This document shows positions 19,397-36,002 of a stretch of 64,000 nt of DNA, piece by piece. The notes beneath the pieces are model-generated. The model did not search any database. It worked only from the letters and a program-made list of their open reading frames with translations, and was not told where the DNA came from. A program made the position numbers and the translations under genes. The first letter of the stretch is position 1, and the number at the start of each line of letters is the position of its first letter. This stretch comes from Candidatus Sericytochromatia bacterium (GTDB lineage Bacteria; Cyanobacteriota; Sericytochromatia; UBA7694): contig JADMKE010000003.1 in assembly GCA_018780035.1 (NCBI GenBank), positions 18,753 through 82,752 on the forward strand, written 5' to 3'.

Positions 19397-19410
19397 TTTT
19401 GCGGCTTTCT

Positions 19411-21315
19411 TTAATACAATTTTAGGTCTTTAAACACATCGTCGCGGTTGCGGACGGAGAGGTAATCCCCTTTTTGGCGTTTGGCCAGGTTGGGATCTGT
19501 GGGGGGGCCAAACGATTCCGTATATTTATACAGCCCAGGAAAATTCGCAGCGGTCATGCGGGGGGACTGTTTAAATGGATTGAAGTCCGACCATTGTGAG
19601 CTGTAATCGTCTTGCAAAGCGCTGAATTTTTGCACCTCGGCTGGGGACATCTCCACAACCTGCACCTGCTGATTATTAAAGGCATAGACGCGATCACCGA
19701 CTTTGGCCAGATTAAAGACATGGCCGGGTTGGTGAATCGGCAAAGAGAGATTTCCGGGAGCGAGGGTATCGAGCAGAATCTGAGAGAGTTTGGTAAAACC
19801 TTCACAATCGATCAGGGCCCGGCCATCGGGCAGGCGGTCCAAAGGGGGAGGGCTGCCAAAGAAAACCTTTTCCGACATGCCCAAACGCTCAGACAAATGG
19901 GCCAGGGCCGACCAAGAGGTGCCTTTGCCGGGATGTTCGTAATGGGCATTGAGGTAGAGTCCGATAAAGTTAACCTGATCCTCTGGCGTCTTGAGCTTGG
20001 CTTTGATTGCTTTGATGGCGTTGAAGTCGTGGGGGTTGGCGGGTTCAAATCCGTATTTCACGCGCAGCTCTTGGCGGGCACCCTCCGCTTTGCGGGACCC
20101 TTCACTCAGGTCAAAGTCTTTGAAGGTGTTTTTGCTGGGCTCTAAGATCCGCAAATTGTGACCCTGAACCTCTAAATTCCAGCCCCCACGCTCGATTAAA
20201 TCGGGATCTGAAAGGGTTTTTTCGATCTGCTTGAGATTGGCTTGAAAGGCTTCCAGGTCTGCTTTGGGCAATTTCAAGGGCTCAAAGCTGCGGGTCATAT
20301 AGGGCCTGGGCTGTTGGCCCTTTTCAAAGGCAAAGGAGGTATTGCCAAACATGTTCAGGCCTTCGGGCCGACTGAGCTGGGTGATGAGTTGAACCAGGCG
20401 TTGGGCATGGGGGGGATTGCCTGCCTGTTTGAGGGTTTGCAAAAGGGTTTTGACGGCTTGGGGAGAGGCTTTGGCCAAGTCCAAACTGGATAAATTGGCG
20501 GCGTTGCCGTCGGCGGCCATCCAGGCTTTGAGGGTCGTTTTGGCGGCTGCAGGCAATTGGTCTAAATCCGCCTGGCTAATACGGGTGGGCTGATTCAACA
20601 TCTGTTGCCAGGCCATGGCTTCTTGCAAAGCCGTTGCAAGTTGTTGCTCTTGGACAGTGGGCTGGTGTTTGAGCAGGCTATTAAACTCAGCCGCTTTGAG
20701 CTGAAACAGCCAATTCATGTCTTCGGGAGTGGGCTCGGGCGGAGGAGATTTTTTGTAATGGGCCAATTTGCCCGCTACATCCTGGTTTTTGAGGCCTTCA
20801 GCTAATTTTGCAGCTGCCGTTTGTTGCGCCTCGACAACTTTGGGCACGTCGATTTTCGCGGGGTCGTCCAAAAATGAGAGGCTCGGCGTGGCGTTGCCTT
20901 CGCTCTGAAACTTGGGCAAGATCGCAGGCAGGAGAATCACTTGGCCTGCTTGGAGCTGATGGGGAGAGGGGAGTTTATTGAGCTTGGTTGCGGCTTGTAC
21001 CCAAAGCTGAATCTCTTGGGGACTGCGGTTCTGAGGCGGCAATTTTTGCCTGGCGATCTTTTCCAGGCTCTCACCTTTTTCGACCTTGTGGGCAACCGGG
21101 CCAAACCCCATTCCCATGCCGATGCTGGCTATGCCCCCAAATAGGCCAAAATCTCCAGTCGGCTTCCCCGCTGATGCTTCAGGCAGACAGCCCGCGACAG
21201 GCGGGTTCGCAGGCTGACTTTGGGGCTGCGACTGCGGCAATTTTTGCGCCTGGATCTGACCTTTGGTAGATTCAGCGGGCGAATAAGTGGTGGGCTGAGG
21301 TTTTATACTTGTCAT
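19411..21315 (-). CDS. LysM-domain protein with low-complexity Q/P-rich region and a C-terminal putative papain-like (Cys...His...Asp) hydrolase module
   Basis: LysM-like segment (HKVEKGESLEKIARQKL...LQAGQVILLP). C-terminal IDCEGFTKL ... PGHVFNL ... VGDRVYAF is a candidate catalytic triad. No database check possible. Confidence 0.45.
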   Translation of the reverse strand: MTSIKPQPTTYSPAESTKGQIQAQKLPQSQPQSQPANPPVAGCLPEASAGKPTGDFGLFGGIASIGMGMGFGPVAHKVEKGESLEKIARQKLPPQNRSPQEIQLWVQAATKLNKLPSPHQLQAGQVILLPAILPKFQSEGNATPSLSFLDDPAKIDVPKVVEAQQTAAAKLAEGLKNQDVAGKLAHYKKSPPPEPTPEDMNWLFQLKAAEFNSLLKHQPTVQEQQLATALQEAMAWQQMLNQPTRISQADLDQLPAAAKTTLKAWMAADGNAANLSSLDLAKASPQAVKTLLQTLKQAGNPPHAQRLVQLITQLSRPEGLNMFGNTSFAFEKGQQPRPYMTRSFEPLKLPKADLEAFQANLKQIEKTLSDPDLIERGGWNLEVQGHNLRILEPSKNTFKDFDLSEGSRKAEGARQELRVKYGFEPANPHDFNAIKAIKAKLKTPEDQVNFIGLYLNAHYEHPGKGTSWSALAHLSERLGMSEKVFFGSPPPLDRLPDGRALIDCEGFTKLSQILLDTLAPGNLSLPIHQPGHVFNLAKVGDRVYAFNNQQVQVVEMSPAEVQKFSALQDDYSSQWSDFNPFKQSPRMTAANFPGLYKYTESFGPPTDPNLAKRQKGDYLSVRNRDDVFKDLKLY

Positions 21316-21359
21316 GGTGTCTTTTGTTTATTGTCGGTCAAAGGCCCAAAAACTTGTGT

Positions 21360-22475
21360 TCAGGGCTGACTCAGATTCAGTTTGGGAATTAACCCCCGCA
21401 GGATTTCCGCGCTAAAAGGGTAATCCCGTGGATCTGCGCCCAACCAGCCCAGTTCAAACCTGTAAAAATCTGCCCAGGCAAAGTCAAACAGCTCCCGCCA
21501 TTCGGCAATAATGGCTTTTGCCAAGCTGGGATTGCCCAAGGCCTGTGCCAAAGTGTCAAAGTACAGCTCTAAATAGCCAGGAATTGCGGCTGCGGCCTGC
21601 GTCTCGGAAAAACAGGCAGACAAAAAATAGGCCAGATCTTTCATGCCACAGCCCCTGCCAACGTATTGAAAGTCCACGGCGGCCACCTGAAGCGGGGCGG
21701 TCTTGTGGGTTGAAAAACAGAAATTGGCGGGTTTGGCATCCCCGTGAATCAGGGTTTGAAAATGGCAGGTCTTGAGTTTTGTTGCAATGGCCGGTGCGGA
21801 TGATTTGAGGGGCCCATGTGGCAGGGCCTGCCATTCGTCTGGACGCGTCTCCAGATGCCAATAACTGCCCTCTTCCCAGAGTTCGGGGGCGACTTGGCCG
21901 AGAAAGCTTGCATGAAAATGAGCCAGCCAGCTCACAACTGCTGCCATTTCGGCGCTGTTTAAGTGTCGCCTGCGCTCGGGGTAGCCGACTGGGTCGAGGT
22001 CTTCTAAGAGCAGCCAATCGCCGTCTTGGGACTGTCCTTGTGCGAGAAAACGCGGGACCCGGCATGTTTGATTCAGGCCGTTGCTGTAGAGACTGTACCA
22101 GGTCCGCTCGATCTGGTACGACCTGACCTTACGCTGGTGGGAAAGGCTCTTTCCAGAGGTGTCAGCGGGGGGAGCGATCTGTTTTAAAATCACAGAGCCC
22201 ATTGGCGCCCCTTCCAGTTGCAGTCGCAGGATCTGGCCATAGCCTTTCCAAAGGGTTTGCACGGTCTCTATTCGGCTCAGGCCTTTGGCCCCGATTGCGT
22301 CTACAATGGGCGTCAGCCAGGGGCGAGGAACATTATTTGCGTTTTTCAAGTTCGGCCAACAGATCCGCGTGTTTGATGGCATTTTCATACTGCACTTCTG
22401 CGGAAATGTGTTCCTGTTCGCGGGCCACCAACGAGGCTTCGTAGAAAAAACCTCCCAGCCCCTGCTGCTGTTCAC
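21360..22475 (-). CDS. Phosphotransferase-family kinase (APH / choline-ethanolamine kinase-like fold)
   Basis: Brenner motif LIHGDAKPANF and VDFQYVGRGCGMKDLAYFL (DFG-equivalent). Start uncertain; it could be the internal MKMPSNT. Confidence 0.65.
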   Translation of the reverse strand: MNSSRGWEVFSTKPRWWPANRNTFPQKCSMKMPSNTRICWPNLKNANNVPRPWLTPIVDAIGAKGLSRIETVQTLWKGYGQILRLQLEGAPMGSVILKQIAPPADTSGKSLSHQRKVRSYQIERTWYSLYSNGLNQTCRVPRFLAQGQSQDGDWLLLEDLDPVGYPERRRHLNSAEMAAVVSWLAHFHASFLGQVAPELWEEGSYWHLETRPDEWQALPHGPLKSSAPAIATKLKTCHFQTLIHGDAKPANFCFSTHKTAPLQVAAVDFQYVGRGCGMKDLAYFLSACFSETQAAAAIPGYLELYFDTLAQALGNPSLAKAIIAEWRELFDFAWADFYRFELGWLGADPRDYPFSAEILRGLIPKLNLSQP

Positions 22476-22514
22476 TCAAACTGGGGGAATTCAGGCTTTC
22501 AAATTCTTGCATTT

Positions 22515-23444
22515 TTACCTCTGCAGTTCGTGGCGCACGAGCGCTTCGTCGAGCAAATCGCGGTAGAGATCGAGTTGCAATTGGAATCGTTGCCATTGGG
22601 CTTCGGTGCGCAGGTCTTGCTGGTTTTGCAAGCGTAAATTTTCCAACTTAAGGCCATAGGCATCAGCGCGGTCGAGGTAATACTCCAGGCGTTTTTCGAG
22701 GAGGTCTATCGCTTCGGGTTGTACCGCTGTAAGTGTGGCGTGCATATCCAGATTGAGCAGCGAGATGTCTTCACTCAGCCATTTGTACATACTCGCAAAA
22801 CCTTTACACAGACGCAGACTGGCCTGAATATTTGAAATCAGGGTTTCAAGGGGCTGGAGGGTAAAGCTCAAGCTGGCATTGTTGTATCCCCAATCCAGGT
22901 CTTTGAGATGGGCCAAAAATGCCTGGTGTTGTTTTTGCAGTTTGGCCAGGTCTATTTCACAGCGGTTGATCAGCTCTGGATCGGATGTGACAAAGGGGAT
23001 GACCGTTTGTTGGGCTGCCTGCACCAAGCTTTGGATTTGGTTGTCAATCTCCGCGTATTGATCCAGATCTGAGACCGGAAGCCCTGTATCGTCCTCGCCC
23101 AGCAGATCCGCTTCGATGCGTTTGACAAAGGTCTGCGCCAAACGATCTTGGGGATTTTTTTCGAGCACCTGCAGGGCGTATTGGCGGGCCAAGGTGTGAT
23201 TTTCGAGCAAGAGTAAAATATAGGCAAAAGCCAAGCCTGGATTGGGGTTGTCGGGCGTAATTTGGTTGGCCCTTAAAAAAGCCTTGCCGGCCTCTTGTAA
23301 ATGCTCTGGATTCTGAAATTTTTTGCTGTGGGCCTGTTTTAAAAACAAAAGCCCTTGATTGTAAATGACTTGCGCGTGCTCAAACCTTTGGGCTGTGAGT
23401 TTGCGGTGATGTTCACTGAGTTGCTCTGAAGAGATAACACCCAT
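22515..23444 (-). CDS. Hypothetical TPR-like / coiled-coil protein
   Basis: 309 aa ORF with helical repeats. First gene of a four-gene minus-strand operon. No recognisable catalytic motif. Confidence 0.5.
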   Translation of the reverse strand: MGVISSEQLSEHHRKLTAQRFEHAQVIYNQGLLFLKQAHSKKFQNPEHLQEAGKAFLRANQITPDNPNPGLAFAYILLLLENHTLARQYALQVLEKNPQDRLAQTFVKRIEADLLGEDDTGLPVSDLDQYAEIDNQIQSLVQAAQQTVIPFVTSDPELINRCEIDLAKLQKQHQAFLAHLKDLDWGYNNASLSFTLQPLETLISNIQASLRLCKGFASMYKWLSEDISLLNLDMHATLTAVQPEAIDLLEKRLEYYLDRADAYGLKLENLRLQNQQDLRTEAQWQRFQLQLDLYRDLLDEALVRHELQR

Positions 23445-23815
23445 GTATCCCTCTGATGTTTAAAAGATATACCAGTATAGGGCTGTGAACCTGGGCAGGC
23501 AAGTTGGCAGATCTGGAAAGAATCTGGCACACAGCCAAAATCCGACGAAATAGCTCACAAGAATAAGATTGAATTTGCCGCTGCTCCTCTTACATGGCTT
23601 TGGTGGTTCTGGTCTAAACTGGCGTCCCTTTATCGCCACGGCACTGCGATTTCTTTAGTCCCACGATTAACGGACGGTTTTTTGCGATTATCTCAGAAGT
23701 GGATGGAGATTGGACCGGCCAGCGCAACTGATTTTGAGTGCCGTGAACCCAGTCTGTGAAAAAAATGCCTCGCTGAGCGTACCTCTGTTTATCCTGTTTT
23801 TCAGAGGTAATCGCC

Positions 23816-25747
23816 ATGACGGACTTTATCCCAAACAACGTGAATCGCTCGTTTCAAGCTGTCCCAGGTATTCCCAAAGAAACCACTGCCACCAGACAGG
23901 CCCCTTCCCTACCCCCAAAAGCCAATACCAGTCCCAATCTGTTTAAACAAAATGGGACCAAATATCTGCAGGCAAATGCGGATTCTCCCCCCACACAGGG
24001 CCTGGGCCTCCGCAACCTCCTCGGGTTGGGCCTGGGAAAAAAAAATGATGACTTTGCTGTTTTGAGTGCGGCTCAGCCATCACCCCAAACGACCTCTCAA
24101 AACCGGATTTCAGATGCATTTAACCCCGACTTATTGCCTGCGGTCAATCAAGCTGCACCCCTCAGCCCTCCCGCTGTCTGTACCGACCTCAATACTTGTG
24201 AGCCTGGCAGTGTCCGACCGCCCATCTATGCCTTTGATTTTGCGCCCAGTAAAATGAGGCCCTTTCCAGAAGCCCGCAGCTTAAAAGGCCCATTGGCCAC
24301 CCGCACAAGTTGGCTGAGTCAATTAGAAAAAAGTCACAGGGGTTATAATCTTGAGATTTTTCATAACGGTATTCCTTTTGGAGCGCTTAAATCTGCCTTG
24401 GGAAAATCCGACAAAAATCAGGATTCCCAACTCAATTTGGATGAGGCAAAACGGGCTGGTGTACTTAACTCGACTCAAGCAGATGCCCTAAAACAGCTTG
24501 CGCGCGCTCATCAGCTTATGCCAGCTGACCCAAAGAATATCGACGCGGTAGCGCTGGGCAAAGCCCTTGAAACACAGGGCGTCACAATTCCAGCAGAACT
24601 GGCTGATGCACTTTCTGATTTGGAAGTGTTGAATCACTATTTGGGTCAAGTGGATATTGCCCCAGAAGAAATAATCTTGCAAGCGGATCCCCAAGCCCGT
24701 GCAACGTCTAAAACCACCCTTACGATCAAAGACTATGCCGAAACGACGATTGAACAAAAGGCTGAAACCAAAGAGCAGTACCGTGCAGCCAAACTTGAAT
24801 ACCTGAAACTAAAAAGTGAGGTTCGATCATTGGAACAAAATGTGAAAACACTCACAGGAAAAATGGAAGCAGCAACAAAAGAGCGGGATCGCCTGATAGC
24901 AAGAAATCCGAGTCATTCTGGGATTCCGTCTCTGCAAGCAAAAATGGCAAGTCTGCAAACAGAGTTAACGCCTAAAATCGCGGAATTGGCCGCAAAGCAA
25001 GCTTTGCTTTCTGAAAAGGGAAATGCCACAGTAGAAGGGGTTTATGCGAAAGGGGGCACTGTGGTAGACAAATATTTATTTGGTCCCCAAACCCCTGAAC
25101 AGAAGGCCGTCCAGTTTGGGGATATTTTCGATCGCAGGGCTCAACAAGGCATTACCGATGGCTATAAACACGATAACGTGGGGTGTGCTGCTTTGACAGA
25201 CCTGTTGCATACCCTGGTGCTCGGCCGAGAAATCAATGTCCAAAAAATGTTAGAACTCACCCAAAGTTCAGATCATTATGGCTCCGTCCAAGTCACCCAT
25301 ACAGCAGGGACGCGGACAACGCCATTTGCCAAAGACAAACCCAATCCTGCAGATCCTGGAGCCAAACCACAGGAAGAAAATTTGCAGGCCCTGTTCGATC
25401 AAGGCGTGATCAAACCAGGAATGGTGTTGTTTATCAACACCGATTCTGATATGCGTCTGACCGGAGAAAGTGCAGAGATGGGCAGTAAACCATTTGGTTC
25501 AAGTGACCGGCACTGGTTTACCTATATGGGCAAATCAGGAGAAACCCCCCTGTTCTTGGATAATACGGGCACAAAGTATACGCTCCAGCAAATGATCAAC
25601 CACTTCCAGGTCGGCCGAGAGGACAATATCGGCTCTCCAACAGTATTACACACTGTCTTTGATTTTTACCCCACTGAAGCCGAACGCGAAAAATTTAAGG
25701 CCTTTGCCCAAAAACTGTTGGGAAATGCCCTCTCAGAAAACGGATGA
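23816..25747 (+). CDS. Hypothetical protein with low-complexity N-terminus, central coiled coil and a C-terminal Cys/His-containing globular domain
   Basis: 643 aa. Coiled-coil segment (EQKAETKEQYRAAKLEYLKLKSEVRSLEQNVKTLTGKMEAATKERDRL). The C-terminal domain has conserved-looking GYKHDNVGCAALTDLLH and SDRHWFTY. Divergent from the upstream operon. Confidence 0.5.
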   Translation: MTDFIPNNVNRSFQAVPGIPKETTATRQAPSLPPKANTSPNLFKQNGTKYLQANADSPPTQGLGLRNLLGLGLGKKNDDFAVLSAAQPSPQTTSQNRISDAFNPDLLPAVNQAAPLSPPAVCTDLNTCEPGSVRPPIYAFDFAPSKMRPFPEARSLKGPLATRTSWLSQLEKSHRGYNLEIFHNGIPFGALKSALGKSDKNQDSQLNLDEAKRAGVLNSTQADALKQLARAHQLMPADPKNIDAVALGKALETQGVTIPAELADALSDLEVLNHYLGQVDIAPEEIILQADPQARATSKTTLTIKDYAETTIEQKAETKEQYRAAKLEYLKLKSEVRSLEQNVKTLTGKMEAATKERDRLIARNPSHSGIPSLQAKMASLQTELTPKIAELAAKQALLSEKGNATVEGVYAKGGTVVDKYLFGPQTPEQKAVQFGDIFDRRAQQGITDGYKHDNVGCAALTDLLHTLVLGREINVQKMLELTQSSDHYGSVQVTHTAGTRTTPFAKDKPNPADPGAKPQEENLQALFDQGVIKPGMVLFINTDSDMRLTGESAEMGSKPFGSSDRHWFTYMGKSGETPLFLDNTGTKYTLQQMINHFQVGREDNIGSPTVLHTVFDFYPTEAEREKFKAFAQKLLGNALSENG

Positions 25748-26283
25748 ATTTTCATCTGGAGTCAATGCCATATCCCGAAATTCAATTATTACAGCGCAAG
25801 TCTAGCCAAATTTGGAATATATATTGTTGTTTTTATTGGAGTAAAAGTCTAATAATCAAATATATTGAAAAAATATTTCTAAGATAATTGTGTAAATTTT
25901 GAAAAAAAATTTAAATTTTTAAAATTAATATCTATTTGAGCAATCAAATTTTGAATCAAATTAATAATTCTTTATATTTCGGAACTATTATTTTATAGTC
26001 TCGTCTTAAATGTATGCTTGCTCATAGTTGACACTCTACTGTATTAAACTTTTGAATTTATTCATTCCGTCCAATGTCTGCTTGTGGAGGAAAAATAAAT
26101 TTTGTCGTCTTGCTGCAAATTTTTAAAAAACAATTTTTTTTATTTAATATTCATAAAAATAAATAAAGATATAACAAAAAATCTTTTTAAATTAAGGCAA
26201 AAATTGTGTTGTTTGAAAAATTCAAAACAAGATTATAGGGCTGTGTTTAAGTATAATTTTTTTCTATAAATGGAGATTATTAA
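25748..26283. other. Roughly 535 bp extremely AT-rich intergenic tract (about 20% GC against about 55% elsewhere) upstream of the large lipoprotein gene
   Basis: Compositional contrast visible by eye. Long A/T runs, no ORF, and a TGGAGA Shine-Dalgarno just before the 26284 ATG. Confidence 0.8.
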
Positions 26284-28893
26284 GTGAAAGTATTTGCGCG
26301 TAAATTCCGGGTCAATAAGACATCGCTGTTTTCGATGGTTTTGTTGATTTCCACAGTTGGATGTCAGCCAACATCTACTTCTGGACCTAATGTCCCCACC
26401 GCTCCGACTTCGAGCCCTGTCCATTCTGCGGCTCCGGCTGCGACACCCACTCCAGGCGCCTCTGCGACACCCGTTCCGACGAGTTCGGGTCTTTCGGGGC
26501 AGAACGACACGACCCCTCCCACAGTGTCGTTTACCAGTCCTATCAATGCCGAACTGGGTATTGCCGTTAACCGCAAAATTGTCGCCACCTTTAGTGAGGT
26601 CATGGACCCAACTAGTTTGTCTGAATCCACCTTCACGGTAACAGCTCCCGGACCTGTTGCTGTTGCTGGTAAGGTGACGTATATCGGTAGCGTGGCCACC
26701 TTTACACCCACCAGCAACCTGGCTGTTAGCACCAGCTATACAGCGACGATCAGCACCAAAGCCAAGGACTTGGCTGGCAATGCCATCGCACTTAAAAAAA
26801 GCTGGGTTTTTACCACGGATGCTTCGAGTGATACCACAGCCCCAAGTGAAAGTTACTCAAACCCAGCCAATGGCGCAACCAATGTCGCTACCAGTGGCAA
26901 TCTAGGCTTGACCTTCAGTGAAGTGATGGACCCCGCAACGGTCAACACAGACACGTTTATCCTGAGAGAGCAACCCGGTTCAAAGCCCGTTGCTGGCACG
27001 GTGACATATATTGGCAATATTGTCAGCTTCAATCCCAAAGAATCGCTCAAGCCCAATACAAGTTATACGGCAACGATTACAACCGGAGCCAAAGATCTGG
27101 CAGGCAACCCCTTTGCCGCAGATAAAACCTGGACCTTTATCACAGGCTCGTCTGACGGTGCTGGCAGTGGCAGCACTGGCGGTGGCGGTGGCGGTGGCGG
27201 TGGTGGAGGTGGCGGCGGCGGCGGAGGTGGCGGTGGTACTGTCGTCACCCCAGACACCTCCCCTCCAACCCTGAGCGCAAGCAACCCTGTCAATGCAGTC
27301 CTGAATGTCTTCACCAATGGCAAGTTGGCAGTGACTTTCAGCGAGGTGATGGATGCCTCAAGTATAAATTCAACCACTTTTTCTCTGGTCGGCCCCGGTC
27401 AGACCCCTGTCCCAGGGACGGTAACTTATGCGGGCACGACGGCGACCTTTACCCCCAACGCGAATCTCGCCGCCAATACCCAGTTTACGGCCACGATCAC
27501 CAATGGGGTCAAAGACCTGGCAGGCAATGCCCTGGCAGCCAATCAGACTTGGACCTTTACCACCGGGTCCGCCACCGATACAACCGCCCCAACAGTCAAC
27601 CTGAGTACACCAGCCAACGCGGCCATAGGCGTGGCTGTCAACGCAGCTGTTTCAAGCACCTTTAGCGAAGCGATGAATGCCTTGACCATCAGCACCAACA
27701 GCTTTCAGCTGACGGGGCCTGGTGCAACGCCCGTTTCTGGCGCTGTCACCTACGTTGGCAATATTGCGACCTTTACACCCACCAGCAACCTGGCTGCCAA
27801 TACCCTGTATACAGCCACTGTGAACATGGGCGTCTTGGACCTCGCTGGCAATCCGTTGGCGGCTAACAAAGTCTGGACGTTCACCACCGGTGCTGCTCCT
27901 GATACCACGGCGCCTTTGGTGAATGCAAGCAACCCTGCGAACCTGGGCGCCAGTGTCTTGACCACAAGTCTGAACACAGCCACCTTCAATGAGCCGATGA
28001 ATCCGCTCACGCTGACCACCGCCACGTTTACCCTGACTGGGCCTGGTCAGGTACCCGTTCCGGGCACTGTCAGCTATATCGGCAATGTGGCCACCTTTAC
28101 CCCCACAACCGAGCTTGCACGCAAGACCCTCTATACGGCGACCATTACCACGGGCGCTCAGGATCTCGCAGGCAATCCGCTGGTGGCCAACAAGGTCTGG
28201 ACATTTACCACCGCTTTGGGGCCTGCTGCTGTCAACCTCAGAACCGCCGCTGATTTTGCCGTCTTATCCAAATCCGGCATTTCGTCGGTTCCGGGTTCGG
28301 TGATCACCGGGGATATTGGGGTGAGCCCAATCGGGCTGACCGCCATTACCGGTTTCTCAGAGGTGATGGATGCTTCGACCACCTTTGCGACCTCGACTCA
28401 GGTCACTGGTCGGATTTATGCGGCCAATCTGACCGCGCCCACACCCACAAAAATGACGACGGCAATTGGGGATTTGGCCACTGCATACACAGATGCGGCC
28501 GGACGGGCCATTCCTGACTTCTCTGAGTTGGGCACAGGTCAAATCGGGGGGCAGACATTGGTGCCAGGTCTCTACAAATGGGGAACCAATGTTTTGGTCT
28601 CGACCGATGTCACCTTAAACGGGGGCCCCAACGATATCTGGATCTTTCAGATTTCGGGTGGTGTGATCCAGGCTTCTGATAAACGGGTGATCCTGTCCGG
28701 TGGGGCCCAGGCCAAAAATGTCTTCTGGCAGATTGCTGGCGATGTGAGCATCGGTGCTCGCGCCCATTTTGAGGGAATCATCATGTGTGAAACCGAGATC
28801 AATCTGGGTTCAGACGCCTCGATCAACGGCCGCCTTTTGGCCAATACGGCGATTAACCTGATCAAAAACACCGTGACGCAACCGGCTCTCTAA
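26284..28893 (+). CDS. Surface lipoprotein with about 5 tandem Ig-like (SbsA/BIG-type) repeats, a Gly27 linker and a C-terminal DUF3494 ice-binding-protein-like domain
   Basis: Lipobox LLISTVGC. Repeated roughly 95 aa units (TxTYxGNxATFTPxxNLAANTxYTATIxxGAKDLAGNxLAANKxWTFTT). Run of 27 Gly. The C-terminal domain starts AADFAVLSKSGISSVPGSVITGDIGVSPIGLTAITGF and ends with a beta-helix-like G/N-rich region. Confidence 0.8.
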   Translation: MKVFARKFRVNKTSLFSMVLLISTVGCQPTSTSGPNVPTAPTSSPVHSAAPAATPTPGASATPVPTSSGLSGQNDTTPPTVSFTSPINAELGIAVNRKIVATFSEVMDPTSLSESTFTVTAPGPVAVAGKVTYIGSVATFTPTSNLAVSTSYTATISTKAKDLAGNAIALKKSWVFTTDASSDTTAPSESYSNPANGATNVATSGNLGLTFSEVMDPATVNTDTFILREQPGSKPVAGTVTYIGNIVSFNPKESLKPNTSYTATITTGAKDLAGNPFAADKTWTFITGSSDGAGSGSTGGGGGGGGGGGGGGGGGGGGTVVTPDTSPPTLSASNPVNAVLNVFTNGKLAVTFSEVMDASSINSTTFSLVGPGQTPVPGTVTYAGTTATFTPNANLAANTQFTATITNGVKDLAGNALAANQTWTFTTGSATDTTAPTVNLSTPANAAIGVAVNAAVSSTFSEAMNALTISTNSFQLTGPGATPVSGAVTYVGNIATFTPTSNLAANTLYTATVNMGVLDLAGNPLAANKVWTFTTGAAPDTTAPLVNASNPANLGASVLTTSLNTATFNEPMNPLTLTTATFTLTGPGQVPVPGTVSYIGNVATFTPTTELARKTLYTATITTGAQDLAGNPLVANKVWTFTTALGPAAVNLRTAADFAVLSKSGISSVPGSVITGDIGVSPIGLTAITGFSEVMDASTTFATSTQVTGRIYAANLTAPTPTKMTTAIGDLATAYTDAAGRAIPDFSELGTGQIGGQTLVPGLYKWGTNVLVSTDVTLNGGPNDIWIFQISGGVIQASDKRVILSGGAQAKNVFWQIAGDVSIGARAHFEGIIMCETEINLGSDASINGRLLANTAINLIKNTVTQPAL
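27160..27237 (+). repeat. (GGN)n microsatellite encoding the poly-Gly linker
   Basis: ggtgctggcagtggcagcactggc(ggtggc...)n, about 26 consecutive GGN codons. Confidence 0.9.
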
Positions 28894-28920
28894 ACATCCG
28901 GCGGCGAAACAAGCTTGACT

Positions 28921-28953
28921 GAATGCCCCGACTGTCTGACAGCCGGGGCATTC
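28921..28953 (+). terminator. Stem-loop downstream of the lipoprotein gene (putative intrinsic terminator)
   Basis: gaatgccccgactgtc-tga-cagccggggcattc is a 14 bp stem with one mismatch, followed by a T-rich ttcttgtt tract and a duplicated cattcttgttggg. Confidence 0.4.
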
Positions 28954-29074
28954 TTGTTGGGCATTCTTGTTGGGCTGGGTGTCTAAATGGAGTTTGACCT
29001 TTTGTCGTCTCTTGCACCGGAAAGTCAGGTGTAAAATAGAGGACAGATTCTAAAAAAAGAACTTTCAAAAAAAC

Positions 29075-29713
29075 ATGATTACGATTCAGGCTTTTGAGCA
29101 TACCCAGCAAACCCACTTGGAACGCTACGACCAGATCCCGATGGTTGTAGACGTGCGCAGTGAATACAAACTGGAAAAAATCCAGGCGGGTTTGGGAGGG
29201 ATTCGTCTGGTAGAAACCCCTGTAGAACCTTACCTCAAGGATTTGGGGCAATATTCCCGCATGACCGAATTGGCTCAGCAATTTGATCTGAGCCAGTGGG
29301 GCTTTTGGTTGGCCAGCGACGCCCACACGCCTGTTGGTGGAGCTGCTGTGCTGTGTAAATCTCCCCAAATCCAGATGCTGGCTGGGCGAGAAGATTTGGG
29401 CGTGTTGTGGGATATTCGGGTGGCCGATAGCCACCAGGGCCAGGGTGTGGGGCAATTGCTGTTTGAACAGGTCAAAATCTGGTGCCAAGCCAGAGGGCTG
29501 AAACAGTTAAAAATTGAGTGTCAAAACAACAATCTTGCTGCTTGCAGGTTTTATCACAAACAGGGGGCTGTTTTGGGGGAGATCAACAGCTATGCGTATT
29601 ATCTGGATCCAGATTGTGCGCATGAAACCCAGCTGATCTGGTATTTGGATTTAACCAATGGGCTTGAAATTGCCCCTCAGGGTCATAGCGCTGGGCCTGG
29701 CCTTCGGGATTAA
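29075..29713 (+). CDS. GNAT family N-acetyltransferase
   Basis: Acetyl-CoA motif A (QGQGVGQLLFEQVKIWCQARG) and C-terminal ACRFYHKQGA. The 3' end overlaps the convergent photolyase gene by 131 bp. Confidence 0.75.
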   Translation: MITIQAFEHTQQTHLERYDQIPMVVDVRSEYKLEKIQAGLGGIRLVETPVEPYLKDLGQYSRMTELAQQFDLSQWGFWLASDAHTPVGGAAVLCKSPQIQMLAGREDLGVLWDIRVADSHQGQGVGQLLFEQVKIWCQARGLKQLKIECQNNNLAACRFYHKQGAVLGEINSYAYYLDPDCAHETQLIWYLDLTNGLEIAPQGHSAGPGLRD

Positions 29714-30938
29714 AGCGGCGCATGGGGCGGGGATCATTGCCCACCCCTGCCAAATACATCCAATTGCCCCAATTGCTACAGGGATCGTAGTCAATCAAGC
29801 AATGTTCAAACCAAGCCGCTCCCCAGGTCCAGGGCAAATTTAAATCATGAATGAGATAACTGGCCACATTCTGGCGTCCCCGATTGGACATCCAGCCCGA
29901 GAGCGCCAATTCGCGCAAATTCGCGTCGATAAAGCTCTGGCCGGTTTGCCCCCGACACCAAGCCGCAAAAAGCGTTTGGTCGACTTTTGCGGGCGGTACT
30001 TTGCCCCGCAGCCCCCCCGACAGAAAAATCTGTTTGCCTGCTTGGAGTGCCACCAGCCGAAAATATTCCCGCCAGAGCAGTTCAAAGATCATCCAATAGG
30101 TGGAATCATTGGCCCCGCACTGGTTTTCATATTTGCGTACCTGCCTGTAAATCTGCCTGGCAGAGAGGGCCCCATTGGCCAACCAAGGCGAAAATTTGGA
30201 GGAATAAGCCTCTCCAAGCAGGCCATTGCGGGTCTCTTTGTATGTGCGGATCAGACCGCGTTGCCAGATGTAATCATCTAAACGCGCCAAGGCAGCACGT
30301 TCTCCACCCCCAAAGCGCAGTACGGCACGTGGGTCATCTTGGGGCGGATCCTGAAACAGATCTTGCATGCTGGGGAGGGCCGGACAGTCGGGGCTCAATT
30401 CTGGCAATTGAGGCAGGTGTTGGGGGGGCGGCAGTGGGGGTGGAACTTGTAGATCGGGTTCGATCAGTTTGCGAAAAGCCGTGAAGTTCTTCGGCAAGTC
30501 TTTGAGGTCAAAAGGCAGATTTTCGAGGGGCAATAAACCTTCGCTGGGATGAAGCAAAAAAGGCAACCCCCCTTCTGCCAGCGTTCTTTGAAGGGCATCT
30601 GCTTCGGCTTTTTCTTCGGGCAAGAATGCTCCCAAGCCGTAGACTGCGTCGGCTTGAATCTGCCTGGCCAAGGCAGGAATGATCTGTTGGGGATGGCCCA
30701 GATACACATACAGATCGCTGCCCAATTGCCTCAACTGGGTCTGTAACGCTTTTAGACTTTCCAGCAAAAAACGCGTTCGCCATGGCCCTGTTTTGGCAAA
30801 GCCCAAAGTGAGTCTGCGAAACAGATCTGGGTTAAGGCAATAGACTGGCAGGAGAGTATCGGCACTTTCACAGAGTTGACTGAGCAGGGCCTGATCATGC
30901 AGACGCAGATCTTGACGGAACCAATAAATAACATTCAT
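29583..30938 (-). CDS. Cryptochrome-DASH / DNA photolyase family protein
   Basis: MNVIYWFRQDLRLHDQ N-terminus, FAD-binding C-terminal domain (W..GQTG....DANLREL..SGWMSNRGRQNVASYL). Confidence 0.85.
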   Translation of the reverse strand: MNVIYWFRQDLRLHDQALLSQLCESADTLLPVYCLNPDLFRRLTLGFAKTGPWRTRFLLESLKALQTQLRQLGSDLYVYLGHPQQIIPALARQIQADAVYGLGAFLPEEKAEADALQRTLAEGGLPFLLHPSEGLLPLENLPFDLKDLPKNFTAFRKLIEPDLQVPPPLPPPQHLPQLPELSPDCPALPSMQDLFQDPPQDDPRAVLRFGGGERAALARLDDYIWQRGLIRTYKETRNGLLGEAYSSKFSPWLANGALSARQIYRQVRKYENQCGANDSTYWMIFELLWREYFRLVALQAGKQIFLSGGLRGKVPPAKVDQTLFAAWCRGQTGQSFIDANLRELALSGWMSNRGRQNVASYLIHDLNLPWTWGAAWFEHCLIDYDPCSNWGNWMYLAGVGNDPRPMRRFNPEGQAQRYDPEGQFQAHWLNPNTRSAGFHAHNLDPDNTHSC

Positions 30939-31009: not shown

Positions 31010-33118
31010 TCAGGTCATAAACTCCCAGCCGCTGCGCCAGGCGTCGAGTCCTTCACAATACTCCTGAAAGGCGTGGTAAAAGCGGTGATTGGCCAAGGTG
31101 GCGCTGTCGCCAATCACCACCAGTTTTTTGCGTGCGCGGGTCAGGGCCACATTCATGCGCCGGGTGTCTTTGAGAAAGCCCAATTCACCTTCGCCATTGG
31201 AGCGCACCAGCGAGATATACATAATATCCCGCTCTTGGCCTTGAAAGCCATCGACGGTATCCACGCTGAAACTGCCCAGCTTTAACACGAGTGGGTCTGT
31301 CCGCAAAAGATCTTTAAGCAGATTGACCTGCTGGCGATAGGGCGAAATGATCCCCAGGCTCAAGGTGCTGAGATCCAGACCTGCAGACTGGAGGCCCACC
31401 AGCAATTGTGTCAGGTGGATTTGTAAGAGGCCTGCTTCGCCCGGATTGCCTGTGCTTTTGCTTTCGGGGTTGAGTTCTTCTTCATGGCCACAGCCTGCGG
31501 TGTCGATAAACTCCAGGGGCCGGTTCAGCCAGGGATCGTCGCTCCCGAGATTATGACTGGGATCATGACTGAGCACCTCACGGTCCAAGAGTCTGTGTTC
31601 GGCCACCGAAGCATGTGCCAAGAGCCGATCTTGGTAAAATTCATGGCTGGAAAAGCCCATGATTTGCTGATTCATGCGGTACTGGGTATCCAGCAATGTT
31701 GCGGCTTCGGGCTGGGCCTCTGCACAAATTTCAAACAGGGTTTTGTTCAGGCCTCCAGCCAAGGCCTGGGGAGATTTGACCGTGGGGGGCAATTGGCAAT
31801 GATCTCCCGCCAGAATCACCCGTTTGGCTTTGAGAATCGGGATCAAGGTGCCGCCCAACAATGCCTGGGCCGCTTCGTCGATAAAGACCGTTTCAAATTT
31901 GCGCTTGTGCATGATCTCCTGCGAGGCCCCCACCAAGGTGCAGAGAATGACCCTGGCGCGGTCGAGAATATGTTCCAGCATCTGGTTTTCCATCTCACGG
32001 GCCATCGCCAACATGCGTTTGACCTCTGCCATTTCTTCGCGGCGTTGGGCCCGTTCTGCGGGCCCAAAATTGCGTTTAAACCGCAGGGCCTTGCTGCGCG
32101 TGTCGCGGGCCTCGCGGCGCAAATTCTGGAGCACCTGAAAATTGGGATGTTGGCTCAATTGTTCGTCGAGGGTATAAGGCAAGATTTTTTCGGACATGCG
32201 TGCAGGATGACCCAACCGCACCACGGGCAGACCCGATTCGGCCAATTTTTCGCAAAGCAAATCTGTGGCGGCATTGCTCGGGGCCGAAACCAAGACCTGA
32301 TTTTCGTGTTGCAAGACAGCCTGAATGGCCGCAACCAGCGTGGTGGTTTTGCCTGTGCCGGGTGGGCCGTGTATCATGGCCAATTCCTGGGCCTGTAAGA
32401 CCTGTGAGACCGCCCGGTTCTGGGAATCGTTTAAATGGGGCAAGGGCTGAAAGGGAAAGGCCAAGAATTTAACGGGCGCTTCGCCAAAGAGTTTTTCTCG
32501 CAAACTCAGCAGAGGGCCTTGTTGAAGGCCTTTAAAAATCTCCACGGCCCGGCGCATCTCGCGGTAGGTGGTCTCGTCATAACAGAGATCGAGACCCAGT
32601 TTGCCCTCGTCGAGCCAATCGGGCAATTCGTCGCGTTGCATCACCAATTTGAGGCTGTTGCGGCTCACATGTGTGGCCACGCCGGTTAAAGGCGCCTCTT
32701 GCGGGAAGGCCATGCTGAAGATCGCCAAAATCTGGCCATTTTGAAAGAGGTGGTGTTGATCCAGTTCACTTGTGCGCTCCAACTCCAGAATCAGCTTCTG
32801 GCCCAGACCCAAATCTGTCTGTTTGAGTACCACCGGATACCAGCAAATTCCTTGGGCCTTGCGGGTTTTTAAGGGGGTTTCCAAGACCTGGGTGCGGTAG
32901 AGTTCTTCTTCCGCTTTTTCTTCGAGCTTGAGCAATTGCAACCACTGTTCCAGCTGAGCTGAACTGTTCACACCTTGTATCTCCCTGTTCTGATTGTTGC
33001 CCAGTATACCAGAGGCGAAGCGAAGAGAAATTCCAATGTCGGATCTGACTTGTTGAATCGGGCGATTGCGTCTATGCTTAGGGAAGAATAAGAGCGAAAA
33101 TTCAAGAATCAATCCCAC
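31010..33118 (-). CDS. Superfamily 1B helicase, Upf1/Smubp2/Dna2-like (AAA_11/AAA_12)
   Basis: Walker A GPPGTGKT, DEAAQ box, C-terminal VDGFQGQERD and VALTRARKKLVVIGD. Confidence 0.8.
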   Translation of the reverse strand: MGLILEFSLLFFPKHRRNRPIQQVRSDIGISLRFASGILGNNQNREIQGVNSSAQLEQWLQLLKLEEKAEEELYRTQVLETPLKTRKAQGICWYPVVLKQTDLGLGQKLILELERTSELDQHHLFQNGQILAIFSMAFPQEAPLTGVATHVSRNSLKLVMQRDELPDWLDEGKLGLDLCYDETTYREMRRAVEIFKGLQQGPLLSLREKLFGEAPVKFLAFPFQPLPHLNDSQNRAVSQVLQAQELAMIHGPPGTGKTTTLVAAIQAVLQHENQVLVSAPSNAATDLLCEKLAESGLPVVRLGHPARMSEKILPYTLDEQLSQHPNFQVLQNLRREARDTRSKALRFKRNFGPAERAQRREEMAEVKRMLAMAREMENQMLEHILDRARVILCTLVGASQEIMHKRKFETVFIDEAAQALLGGTLIPILKAKRVILAGDHCQLPPTVKSPQALAGGLNKTLFEICAEAQPEAATLLDTQYRMNQQIMGFSSHEFYQDRLLAHASVAEHRLLDREVLSHDPSHNLGSDDPWLNRPLEFIDTAGCGHEEELNPESKSTGNPGEAGLLQIHLTQLLVGLQSAGLDLSTLSLGIISPYRQQVNLLKDLLRTDPLVLKLGSFSVDTVDGFQGQERDIMYISLVRSNGEGELGFLKDTRRMNVALTRARKKLVVIGDSATLANHRFYHAFQEYCEGLDAWRSGWEFMT

Positions 33119-33144
33119 TTAAATTCAAAGCAGGTATTGCTATT

Positions 33145-34794
33145 ATGGGTTCCATTGGTGGTTTAGGTTCTTCACCTATCATGCCGATTTCTCAAGTGTC
33201 GACCGCTCCCGATTCTGCCAACAAAGTTGCCCCCGTTCAGACGGTCACTGCGACCCAATCCCCGTCCACTTCTTCTGTCACCCAGGCGCCCGAAAGCCAA
33301 GAAACAGCCCAATTGGTCAGAGCTGCCAAAATAGGATCCGAGTCTGGCCCAACGGTTGAGGCAACCACTCAGCTTGGCACCGATCTTGAAAGCCAACCGA
33401 TCACGGAGCCCAAGGGATTCCCGCTGACGCGCATGGATGGCTCTACTGCCAGCCCTGCACCGCTCACATCGGGCTATACCGCTTACGTGGTTCTTTCTGA
33501 ACAACCACAGGCAACGACAACCCGTCAATCTCAAACTGCGCCAAGCTATGAAGCTGTAACAAAAACCCCGGAATCCAGTTATGCAAGCAGTTTGACACCC
33601 TCAGCACCCAGTTCACAACCGACCTCACCCACCCACCATACGGGGTACGCATCCAGCTTGACGCAAACTTCCCCAAGCTCTGTTCAGGCTTCGCAGATTT
33701 CGCATTCTCCTTCGTCTGTCACCCCAACCCATTCCTCCCCGTCAGACAGTCTGGCTCCTATCTCTCTGCCCAAAACCTACCACGGTGAAGATACCCGTGT
33801 GGCCTGGCGAGCGACCTTTGGCGCAGAAGACCTGAAAACCTCGGATCCAGAAGAATACAAGCGAAGGGAGGATTTTGGAAAAAACAGTGCTCAAATTGTG
33901 ACCGAGTACTTTAGCAAAGACCAGATCACTGAACATACCTTGACTCCCAAAGATGGCAAATTGGTTACCCATGACGGCCAGACGGCCTCCTCTGTCTCTA
34001 ACCATTCTATTTATGCCATGAGCCCAGATGGCAAGATCGTTTCGCAACAGAGTAAACCCTTTCAGACCGTTATTAAAGATGCCGATGGCAACGAGATCCA
34101 AAAAAGGAATGTCCATCACTCCTCTATGCTGGCCGGCGGTGATGTGGCCCATGCTGGGCATATCGGAACGGATACCCAAGGCAAAGTCAATTATCTCGAT
34201 GACGACAGTGGCCATTATCGCCCAGACGAAAAACACACCCACAACGCTTTCCAGCGCATGGCCAAAGACAAGATTGTCGATACCAACTCCACCAGTGGAC
34301 GCGTCAAACTGGTCGATAAGCAAACCCGCAAAGGTCTAGAGGAAAGAGACAAAGATGGCAAGATCATCGACAAGACGATCTCCGTGCATTTCTCGGGTTA
34401 TCAACAGTCCCAGGGAAATGAAAAAGGCATTCGTGCCAAAGCGGATGTCATGAAAGAACTGCTCGCCAAAAAATCTGAAAGCGAAAAAAAACCATCGGTC
34501 CCTCTCACCGTCGTTTCAGTGGAGGGCTATGAGTCTTATTCACAAAGCGATGCAAAACCCCTTCAGACCTCCGTTCCCCAGGAACAAGTCTCATCATCTC
34601 TGTCAGATCAGCACAGCAGTTCATCTGTCAGTGCGACACAGCCCTCGGCGCCAGTCACCTTTGTTTCCATGGAGGGCTATGAGTCTTATTCGCGCAGTGA
34701 TGCAAAACCCCTTCAGACACCGCAGAACCCAGAACCCTCATCATCGGCTCCGCCAGAACAGCCCAGCAATCCGGTTCCTGAGCTTAAACCCTGA
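33145..34794 (+). CDS. Hypothetical S/T/P/Q-rich low-complexity protein with a central globular region and two C-terminal repeats of about 55 aa
   Basis: 549 aa. Repeats ...VSVEGYESYSQSDAKPLQT... and ...VSMEGYESYSRSDAKPLQT.... No signal peptide seen. Confidence 0.5.
   Translation: MGSIGGLGSSPIMPISQVSTAPDSANKVAPVQTVTATQSPSTSSVTQAPESQETAQLVRAAKIGSESGPTVEATTQLGTDLESQPITEPKGFPLTRMDGSTASPAPLTSGYTAYVVLSEQPQATTTRQSQTAPSYEAVTKTPESSYASSLTPSAPSSQPTSPTHHTGYASSLTQTSPSSVQASQISHSPSSVTPTHSSPSDSLAPISLPKTYHGEDTRVAWRATFGAEDLKTSDPEEYKRREDFGKNSAQIVTEYFSKDQITEHTLTPKDGKLVTHDGQTASSVSNHSIYAMSPDGKIVSQQSKPFQTVIKDADGNEIQKRNVHHSSMLAGGDVAHAGHIGTDTQGKVNYLDDDSGHYRPDEKHTHNAFQRMAKDKIVDTNSTSGRVKLVDKQTRKGLEERDKDGKIIDKTISVHFSGYQQSQGNEKGIRAKADVMKELLAKKSESEKKPSVPLTVVSVEGYESYSQSDAKPLQTSVPQEQVSSSLSDQHSSSSVSATQPSAPVTFVSMEGYESYSRSDAKPLQTPQNPEPSSSAPPEQPSNPVPELKP
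34504..34720 (+). repeat. Direct repeat (about 50 bp, 2 copies about 150 bp apart) inside the 33145-34794 CDS
   Basis: ggagggctatgagtcttattc(a/g)c(a/g)(a/c)agcgatgcaaaaccccttcagac occurs at about 34521 and about 34671. Confidence 0.8.
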
Positions 34795-34926
34795 TTTTCT
34801 CCTTCGAAAAGTAGATATCAACCCACCACTGCGTGAAGGCCTGCTGCTGGCTTTCACGGTTTTTTCTCACTCCCAAGAGTGGGAACAAAAAATTGCCAAT
34901 CCAGCGCAATTGAAGGAGAAAAAAGG

Positions 34927-35913: not shown

Positions 35914-36002
35914 ACCTCAACCCCTCCTTTGCCAAATGTGTCGAATGCACATCTCTCGCGCTTATGCCTGTGTTAGGCTTAAAGTAACCGCTATACCTAG
36001 GT

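Follow-up and report, generated by a model that had tools for sequence, protein, structure and literature searches.

The architecture pfam13205_pfam13205_pfam11999 has been described as a 'tethering' ice-binding architecture from Arctic sea-ice and Arctic Ocean metagenomes (PMC9957290). According to that paper, which cites Vance 2018, tandem BIg domains act as a tether for ice adhesion. It also presents SfIBP_1 of Shewanella frigidimarina (Vance et al. 2018 FEBS J; PDB 6BG8) as a BIg-DUF3494 'ice adhesin' for which attachment to ice or shaping of ice is proposed (PMC9957290). The same concept underlies MpIBP of Marinomonas primoryensis, a 1.5-MDa RTX ice adhesin in which a long array of Ig-like extenders distances the ice-binding module from the cell (PMC5550230, PMC5014055). 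In addition, the DUF3494 fold is represented by solved structures of single-domain, secreted proteins of about 25 kDa, namely FfIBP/mFfIBP (4NU2/4NU3), TisAFP6/7/8 (3VN3/7DC5/5B5H), LeIBP (3UYU) and the ice-binding proteins of Ca. Cryosericum odellii (9LHN/9LHS).

The gene studied here lies at positions 26284–28893 on the + strand of the window, by which we mean the entire 64,000-nucleotide stretch of DNA that was analysed, and encodes a lipoprotein-type precursor of 869 aa. This protein is an ordinary member of an already described and very common class. More than 7,600 homologues combining several Big_5 domains with DUF3494 were found in many phyla, where they are annotated as 'Ig-like domain-containing protein'. 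In the best non-orthologous ones, the aligned part covers more than 90% of the length at 50–62% identity, and about half of the top 120 homologues have a lipobox-like N-terminus. The exact 869-aa protein was absent from a collection of 15 billion proteins. Although the Pfam architecture of the class is the same, its members mostly have 7–12 Big_5 domains with a uniform spacing of 107–108 aa and are hingeless, whereas the protein from the window has five domains and a hinge. Like SfIBP_1, it has an Ig-like extender and a C-terminal DUF3494 domain, and its putative lipoprotein signal would correspond to the N-terminal membrane-association signal of that protein (PMC9957290). However, the two DUF3494 domains are only 28% identical (TM 0.87) and the proteins are not orthologues. 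Furthermore, the stalk consists of Big_5 domains here, whereas 6BG8 bears the name 'Ig domain protein, group 2'. Our protein also stands apart by its one long poly-Gly hinge, and its host is a relative of Blackallbacteria rather than an Antarctic gammaproteobacterium. MpIBP is still more distant, as it has an unrelated fold (a Ca-dependent RTX solenoid), type I secretion and more than 100 extenders and is devoid of a lipoprotein anchor.

Gene, precursor and stalk

All features described below are located on the + strand unless stated otherwise. The reading frame was found exactly where the initial annotation had placed it, and gene-wide dN/dS values against orthologues are 0.06–0.10. The start codon is GTG and is preceded at a distance of 8 nt by a ribosome-binding site, GGAG (26272–26275), which was read from the sequence and is kept in the orthologous loci L001 and L081. 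The 17 codons that precede an internal ATG specify an unchanged protein sequence in L081 despite a dS of 0.40, so the GTG start is real. The upstream region is AT-rich and is the gene's own. Past the stop codon, a strong hairpin with a weak U tail follows after 28 nt (28921–28953); the fold of 28894–28980 has a free energy of -42.2 kcal/mol (z -4.4). This hairpin, located by eye and by folding, is kept in L001 and is probably a transcription terminator. A scan for consensus promoters and terminators gave counts no higher than those in shuffled sequence and missed the hairpin because its T-run is short. Scanning the window for Rfam families and tRNAs returned no matches, and a second copy of Big_5 or DUF3494 was not found there, so the gene is single-copy within the window.

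From N- to C-terminus, a signal peptide ending at Cys27 is followed by a disordered tether rich in Pro and Thr, then by five Big_5 domains and finally by the DUF3494 domain. The signal peptide and lipobox (MKVFARKFRVNKTSLFSMVLLISTVG, directly followed by C27; 26284–26364) show a K/R-rich n-region (K2/R6/K7), a hydrophobic core and the residues LISTVG in front of C27, with positions 17–22 being uncharged. This fits the pattern of a lipoprotein signal, in which Cys27 would be the lipobox cysteine, and agrees with the earlier designation as a lipoprotein. A lipobox is also present in the orthologues P0122 and P0042. The mature protein has a single cysteine besides that of the lipobox. Residues 28–74 (26365–26505) form a tether of about 47 residues that is rich in Pro, Thr, Ser and Ala and is predicted to be disordered (AF2 pLDDT below 30); constraint is relaxed in this segment (dN/dS 0.11–0.48).

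The stalk is built from five Big_5 domains (PF13205, E 4.9e-124), each of which was found by Pfam, was delimited as a repeat and is modelled by AF2 as an 8-strand beta-sandwich with pLDDT 80–95. Domain 1 (pLDDT 82–93) covers residues 75–178 (26506–26817), domain 2 residues 183–287 (26830–27144), domain 3 residues 324–427 (27253–27564), domain 4 residues 432–535 (27577–27888) and domain 5 residues 540–643 (27901–28212). Linkers are 4 residues long, save for the 36-residue hinge between domains 2 and 3. As self-BLASTP of the protein yielded the identity match alone, repeat boundaries were set by motif. The resulting unit is 104–105 aa with a period of 108 aa (324 nt), instead of the roughly 95 aa proposed initially. 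The count of five given at that time was correct, but the description of the copies as near-identical has to be abandoned, because neither TRF nor a repeat finder detected a high-identity 324-nt array. The copies share 49–62% identity at the protein level and 59–68% at the DNA level, and their longest common exact word is usually no longer than 14 nt.

The glycine hinge and its variation

The hinge comprises residues 288–323 (27145–27252) with the sequence GSSDGAGSGST-G20-TVVTP and is predicted to be flexible (AF2 pLDDT about 30 for residues 291–322). At its core is a (GGN)20 tract encoding Gly299–Gly318 (27178–27237), for which TRF reports a period of 6 with the unit TGGCGG in 10.5 copies. 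The initial annotation had located a glycine homopolymer between repeats 2 and 3, which is its true position, but had counted 27 residues from a pure (GGN)26 microsatellite. The tract in fact holds 20 codons that are a mix of GGC, GGT and GGA, and the longest perfect sub-repeat is (GGCGGT)4. At the background glycine frequency of the protein, the chance expectation of G20 is about 3e-19; it is thus not a chance feature. PDB sequence matches to scFv antibodies were discarded, as they align the hinge with engineered (G4S)n linkers and do not signify homology. An opposite-strand ORF of 104 aa (27063–27377) with a P20 run was likewise dismissed as a mirror image of the GGN tract and not a gene.

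Among the homologues, a Gly/Ser hinge after domain 2 occurs only in the nearest clade (P0003, P0121, P0005, P0008, P0027 and P0122), which includes two proteins of 59–62% identity that keep it at the same site (P0005 and P0008). The longest glycine run in the top 120 homologues is 10 residues as opposed to 20 here. The window shares about 93% nucleotide identity with the Candidatus Blackallbacteria MAG JBPXJQ01. Four orthologues have the hinge at the same site but with differing lengths, such that it spans 28–38 residues across five orthologues and the glycine runs of close strains are G20, G13, G9 and G7. When the window, L001, L080 and L081 were compared, all internal indels fell within the hinge and all were multiples of 3 (6, 9, 15 and 21 nt), as had been anticipated for an in-frame tract. 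Between the genes of L080 and L081, which share 99.2% identity, the sole indel is one GGCGGT unit. Taken together, the position and phase of the indels and this one-unit difference support the view, from sequence comparison, that hinge length changes between strains through in-frame slippage of GGY codons. A scan of JGI metagenome contigs recovered no orthologue above 55% identity and hence no further hinge alleles.

Could the tract be an assembly or sequencing artefact, with low-complexity reads having been collapsed or expanded? The window probably stems from a metagenome assembly, and exact homopolymer-codon lengths are error-prone. However, the tract is 60 nt long and therewith shorter than one short read and than the k-mer of 141 indicated by the k141 contig names of related assemblies, a Gly/Ser tract is found at exactly the same site in the four independently assembled orthologues, the reading frame is intact and the flanking residues are conserved, which makes an artefact highly improbable. 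The initial annotation had instead read the repeats and the tract as features of a variable surface adhesin. Such an adhesin or antigen would change its repeat number by recombination, and its glycine microsatellite would serve as a contingency locus for adaptive heterogeneity within the population. The differing tract lengths in close strains agree with this idea, and so does the range of Big_5 numbers, from about 5 to 12, that is seen across long evolutionary distances. Nevertheless, exactly five repeats are present in five out of five orthologues (window included), the DNA identity among repeats offers no long identical stretches, and dN/dS values of 0.02–0.13 in every folded domain (Nei-Gojobori) point to strong purifying rather than diversifying selection. 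Neither can the tract be an on/off switch, since its repeat unit consists of whole codons and all indels stay in frame. With divergent repeats, a constant repeat number and strong purifying selection, a recombinationally variable, diversifying adhesin does not fit, and we regard this explanation as quite unlikely. It also appears unlikely that the hinge is a conserved slippage-prone microsatellite that tunes the reach or flexibility of the tether or, alternatively, a cleavage site for Gly-Gly endopeptidases. In the former case a population would gain a spread of tether lengths, and in the latter a soluble three-domain ice-binding protein would be released.

The DUF3494 domain and its possible ligand

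The C-terminal beta-solenoid with its bracing helix (residues 720–739) extends from residue 646 to 867 (28219–28884) and was identified by Pfam, PDB matches, AF2 and Foldseek. The Pfam scan that recovered the five PF13205 domains also recovered PF11999 in full (residues 660–865, profile positions 1–208 of 208, E 2.9e-71, 239.9 bits compared with a cut-off of 28.7). The DUF3494 and Ig-like assignments of the initial annotation therefore hold, and the motif quoted for the C-terminus, AADFAVLSKSGISSVPGSVITGDIGVSP...ITGF, is present. PDB sequence matches have E values of 1e-57 to 1e-76. The AF2 model of the domain (pLDDT 91–98) superimposes with 9LHN, 4NU3, 5B5H, 7DC5 and 3VN3 at TM 0.96–0.98 and rmsd 0.6–0.9 A in Foldseek, and the fold matches are ice-binding proteins of Ca. 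Cryosericum odellii, Flavobacterium frigoris, Typhula and Leucosporidium. The domain thus resembles the single-domain proteins in its gapless 47–57% identity and in the same combination of bracing alpha-helix and beta-solenoid, but it forms the tip of an 869-aa lipoprotein-type protein. It is 57% identical to mFfIBP 4nu3 (124/219 residues) and 52% identical to the hyperactive TisAFP8 5b5h (116/221), without gaps in either case. Since the mature protein has only one cysteine besides that of the lipobox, the cap has no disulfide, unlike in those proteins, and it resembles the LeIBP type because the best match is the cap-swapped mFfIBP. The DUF3494 domain is also the best-conserved part of the protein; three orthologues match it at 99%, 94% and 84% identity, and dN/dS values are 0.02–0.07.

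Genuine ice-binding proteins from different phyla show 47–60% mutual identity (PMC7783341), and the identity of our domain to crystallised ice-binding proteins falls inside this range. In TisAFP7, substitution of the ice-binding-site residues T20 and A214 by Tyr lowers activity (PMC7966756); the aligned residues here are the small polar S664 and N858. Activity is unreadable from sequence, however, because ice-binding proteins have no conserved ice-binding-site motif (PMC7966756).

Our preferred reading is that of a cell-envelope lipoprotein in which an ice-binding module is tethered on a stalk and anchored at Cys27, and we see the chances of its being correct as evenly balanced. Lipidation of Cys27 would anchor the protein in the membrane, and the stalk would project the solenoid some tens of nanometres off the anchor. 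The glycine hinge may then allow free orientation of the distal three Big_5 domains and the solenoid, and the flat face of the latter would bind ice, so that the cell could attach to ice or shape ice at its surface, as has been proposed for SfIBP_1 (PMC9957290). In a diderm, such a lipoprotein could face the periplasm instead of the surface.

Alternatively, the same lipid-anchored stalk could present a solenoid whose ligand is not ice but a mineral, the surface of another cell, or a polysaccharide or exopolymer. The protein would in that case serve an organism living free of ice as a general adhesin for surfaces or biofilms. DUF3494 proteins occur in the tropics and in hot springs, and binding of other periodic substrates has been suggested (PMC7783341). 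Proteins with Big_5 domains and PF11999 number in the thousands and come from many phyla and habitats. Domains that are 50–58% identical to ours are found in MAGs that carry the labels Oscillospiraceae, Victivallis, Cloacimonetes and Patescibacteria, none of which is known to be associated with ice. The known Blackallbacteria genomes in the NCBI taxonomy, which are MAGs from Crystal Geyser groundwater, speak for a ligand other than ice as well. Moreover, the NCBIfam equivalog NF045625 (IBP_CFB) matches at 241.3 bits and over model positions 63–275 only, below its cut-off of 400. On the other hand, all solved structures of the subgroup with 47–57% identity are annotated as ice-binding or antifreeze proteins, several of them with published activity (PMC7966756), and the literature that we surveyed contains no demonstration of a non-ice ligand for any DUF3494 protein. 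A ligand other than ice is, hence, a serious possibility but on balance a rather doubtful one. A literature search on the sample and assembly accessions and on ice-binding proteins from Cryosericum yielded no usable information about habitat.

If the domain does not bind ice, the protein would be one more of the very common, uncharacterised Big_5 plus DUF3494 lipoproteins, and would show that a Pfam 'Ice_binding' match alone is insufficient to assign an ice-related function. If it does bind ice, the known range of tethered ice-binding proteins would come to include the Blackallbacteria/Sericytochromatia lineage, and the locus would provide a natural hinge series of G7, G9, G13 and G20 in which linker flexibility can be related to adhesion to ice or to surfaces. 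Were the hinge in fact tuned in length or cleaved, no ice adhesin would have been described before this one from the non-photosynthetic sister lineage of Cyanobacteria.

Architecture and predicted fold of a probable ice-binding-like lipoprotein

The initial annotation had placed a lipoprotein gene at 26284-28893, and this position proved exact in the ORF listing, which has one long reading frame there on the + strand (869 aa, GTG start with GGAG 8 nt upstream). The Pfam check proposed there recovered both claimed domain types: Ice_binding/DUF3494 (PF11999) is complete at residues 660-865 (profile positions 1-208/208, E 2.9e-71), and five stretches match the Ig-like Big_5 domain (PF13205, E 4.9e-124). 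At the N-terminus, MKVFARKFRVNKTSLFSMVLLISTVG directly precedes C27-Q; the n-region is basic, the hydrophobic core uncharged and the cysteine set in a lipobox, consistent with a lipoprotein signal. Since there is just one further cysteine besides C27, the protein has no disulfide.

The start codon is supported by comparison with the orthologue on contig L081, in which the stretch of 17 codons preceding the annotated ATG encodes the same protein as in the window despite a dS of 0.40. This establishes both the GTG start and the complete signal peptide, and the public calls for orthologues P0003 (contig L080, 905-3451) and P0121 (L081, 6001-8553) are N-terminally truncated. As called, both begin at an internal ATG (MVLLISTVGC...), 17 codons short, and miss the signal peptide's basic n-region, which is conserved and starts at the upstream GTG.

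An AlphaFold2 model built on a 24-sequence alignment had a mean pLDDT of 82. Its only disordered segments are residues 1-73 (signal peptide and Pro/Thr tether) and 291-322, a hinge between Big_5 domains 2 and 3; linkers of four residues connect the five repeats, each modelled with confidence as an 8-strand beta-sandwich. The C-terminal domain (pLDDT 91-98) contains the long helix, 720-739, typical of the DUF3494 fold. Foldseek searches of the PDB paired it, at TM 0.96-0.98 (rmsd 0.6-0.9 A), with Ca. Cryosericum odellii ice-binding proteins (9LHN, 9LI0, 9LHS), with mFfIBP, a Flavobacterium frigoris protein with a swapped cap (4NU3), and with Typhula TisAFP6/7/8 and LeIBP. The domain aligns without gaps to mFfIBP (57% identity, 124/219) and TisAFP8 (52%, 116/221), but is merely 28% identical to SfIBP_1 (6BG8). 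With the NCBIfam ice-binding-protein equivalog model the protein scored 241 bits, below the cut-off of 400.

Stalk, glycine hinge and selection among orthologues

Blocks over ~22 kb of contig L001 (JBPXJQ010000049, a 'Candidatus Blackallbacteria bacterium' MAG) are 90-95% identical to the window, and the window therefore belongs to that lineage as a related strain or species. Four orthologues were found, encoding 872 aa on L001 (96% amino acid identity to the window protein), 848 aa as called for P0003 and 850 aa as called for P0121 (92% each) and 862 aa for P0122 on contig L082 (73%). A JGI metagenome scan yielded no closer relatives.

The Big_5 repeats, 104-105 aa each with a period of 324 nt, had been described as near-identical, which is incorrect. 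The copies share only 49-62% protein and 59-68% DNA identity, the longest exact words shared between copies run to 8-14 nt (28 nt in one case), and TRF found no long-period array. The glycine run, reported as 27 residues encoded by a pure microsatellite, counts 20 (residues 299-318; nt 27178-27237) and is impure at DNA level, its codons being GGC, GGT and GGA; TRF resolves the tract into a 6-nt unit repeated ~10.5 times (80% match). With an expectation of ~3e-19 the run is far beyond chance. That it is a product of read collapse is unlikely, because the tract spans only 60 nt and its position is confirmed by four independent assemblies. A 104-aa reading frame with a P20 run on the opposite strand, 27063-27377 (-), is the reverse-complement image of this (GGN)20 tract and not a gene.

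All orthologues carry a Gly/Ser-rich hinge at the same site, reading G20 in the window (35 aa), G13-SS-G4-SS-G3 in L001 (38 aa), G7-SS-G3-STAGGSG in L080 (31 aa), G9-SS-G3-STAGGSG in L081 (33 aa) and GS-rich sequence in L082 (28 aa). When the four close sequences were aligned as DNA over the whole gene, all internal indels fell within the hinge and had lengths divisible by three. Between L080 and L081, 99.2% identical, the sole indel is one GGCGGT unit, the signature of replication slippage. Homologues P0005 (G10) and P0008 (G8), 59-62% identical, also have a hinge after domain 2. Across 121 proteins, 862 of 874 domain-to-domain spacings were below 125 aa (mode 107-108 aa), and hinges of this Gly/Ser-rich type made up seven of the 12 above that length. 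The clade has thus conserved the hinge as such, with drift in its sequence and length. The G20 run is the longest in the set, the other 120 proteins reaching at most 10; its length and purity are the only slightly unusual feature of the protein and are explained as one state of a slippage-prone linker.

By the Nei-Gojobori method, applied per domain to the window and its orthologues, dN/dS was 0.02-0.13 in each Big_5 domain and the DUF3494 domain and 0.1-0.5 in the two disordered linkers, with no sign of diversifying selection. The DUF3494 domain is best conserved (99%, 94% and 84% identity). The suggested comparison of strains bore out variation in glycine length but not in repeat number, as every orthologue has five repeats. 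Because neither diversifying selection nor repeat-number variation showed, the notion of a variable surface adhesin holds for hinge length only. The initial annotation was essentially right in its observations save for glycine count and repeat identity, and partly right in its interpretation.

Flanking sequences and gene neighbourhood

The intergenic region upstream (25748-26283, 536 nt) has 22.6% GC, versus 52% for the window, and can be aligned with L001 and L081. It gave no Rfam match and could be the site of a promoter and long leader. A strong hairpin (28921-28953), kept in L001, lies 28 nt past the stop codon; the fold of 28894-28980 reaches -42 kcal/mol (z -4.4). The hairpin points to a monocistronic unit. 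The window contains no other Big_5 or DUF3494 gene. The neighbours are functionally unrelated (a 643-aa ORF without Pfam hits, a GNAT acetyltransferase, a photolyase/cryptochrome and an SF1 helicase); their content differs among the window, L001 and L081 and is wholly different in L082. No conserved partner gene is apparent across these four, the 643-aa ORF possibly excepted. This ORF (23816-25747), directly upstream on the same strand, matches no Pfam or NCBIfam family and adjoins the gene in L001 and L081 (647 aa), though not in L082. Its middle is coiled-coil-like, and its C-terminal region includes a '...NVGCAALTDLLH...' stretch.

A perfect 13-nt tandem duplication (GGGCATTCTTGTT x2.3, 28946-28975) overlaps the 3' arm of the hairpin and coincides with the left breakpoint of a segment of ~690 bp (28962-29653) that corresponds to 38 bp in L001, where the 13-mer is single-copy. 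The segment holds most of the GNAT gene (29075-29713), also found in L081 (88% amino acid identity). GNAT (+) and photolyase/cryptochrome (-, 29583-30938) genes converge and overlap by 131 nt (29583-29713). Homology to L001 restarts at ~29653, so the insertion contains the final ~23 codons of the photolyase ORF; in L081 there is no photolyase gene at all. A 287-aa NAD(P)-binding gene (NAD_binding_10/NmrA-like; 18536-19411, -) is present in L081 and precisely missing from L001, where its flanks are contiguous, a gene-sized presence/absence polymorphism. Without counterpart in L081 are 21166-23625 (an EcKL/APH-like kinase and a 309-aa ORF) and 33008-35937 (ORFs of 549 aa, with no Pfam hit, and 344 aa). 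L081 has an extra 324-aa gene between the Big_5/DUF3494 and GNAT genes. The neighbourhood is a region whose gene content is in flux between strains 88-93% identical. The 643-aa product of 16605-18536 (Castor_Poll_mid and RCK/TrkA-N domains) is a bacterial CASTOR/POLLUX-like ion channel.

A proposed ice-binding tether, or another ligand

Anatomy, fold, pattern of selection and polymorphism of the hinge are shown by the analyses above. In the mechanism proposed on top of these, lipidated Cys27 would anchor the protein and the stalk would hold the solenoid away from the membrane. By our own estimate the five domains would contribute ~4 nm each and, fully extended, the tether up to ~16 nm and the hinge ~12 nm. 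The flat face of the solenoid may then bind ice, serving to attach to it or to control its growth locally, a role that Vance 2018, as cited in PMC9957290, proposed for BIg-DUF3494 proteins. An Arctic sea ice catalogue lists the Big_5 plus DUF3494 architecture as 'tethering' (PMC9957290). Ice binding by this domain is not readable from sequence, and the same machine may instead hold a different ligand. Ice-binding sites share no conserved motif (PMC7966756), DUF3494 proteins are also known from habitats that never freeze (PMC7783341), and domains 50-58% identical to the present one are found in MAGs labelled Oscillospiraceae, Victivallis, Cloacimonetes and Patescibacteria. Weighing these points, we give an ice-binding tether about an even chance and regard the same machine with another ligand as possible, at a lower probability.

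More than 7,600 homologues were found by protein search, in many phyla and usually named 'Ig-like domain-containing protein'. Nearly all of the best 120 combine several Big_5 domains with PF11999, and about half of them have a lipobox-like N-terminus. The protein belongs to a class that is already described and extremely common.
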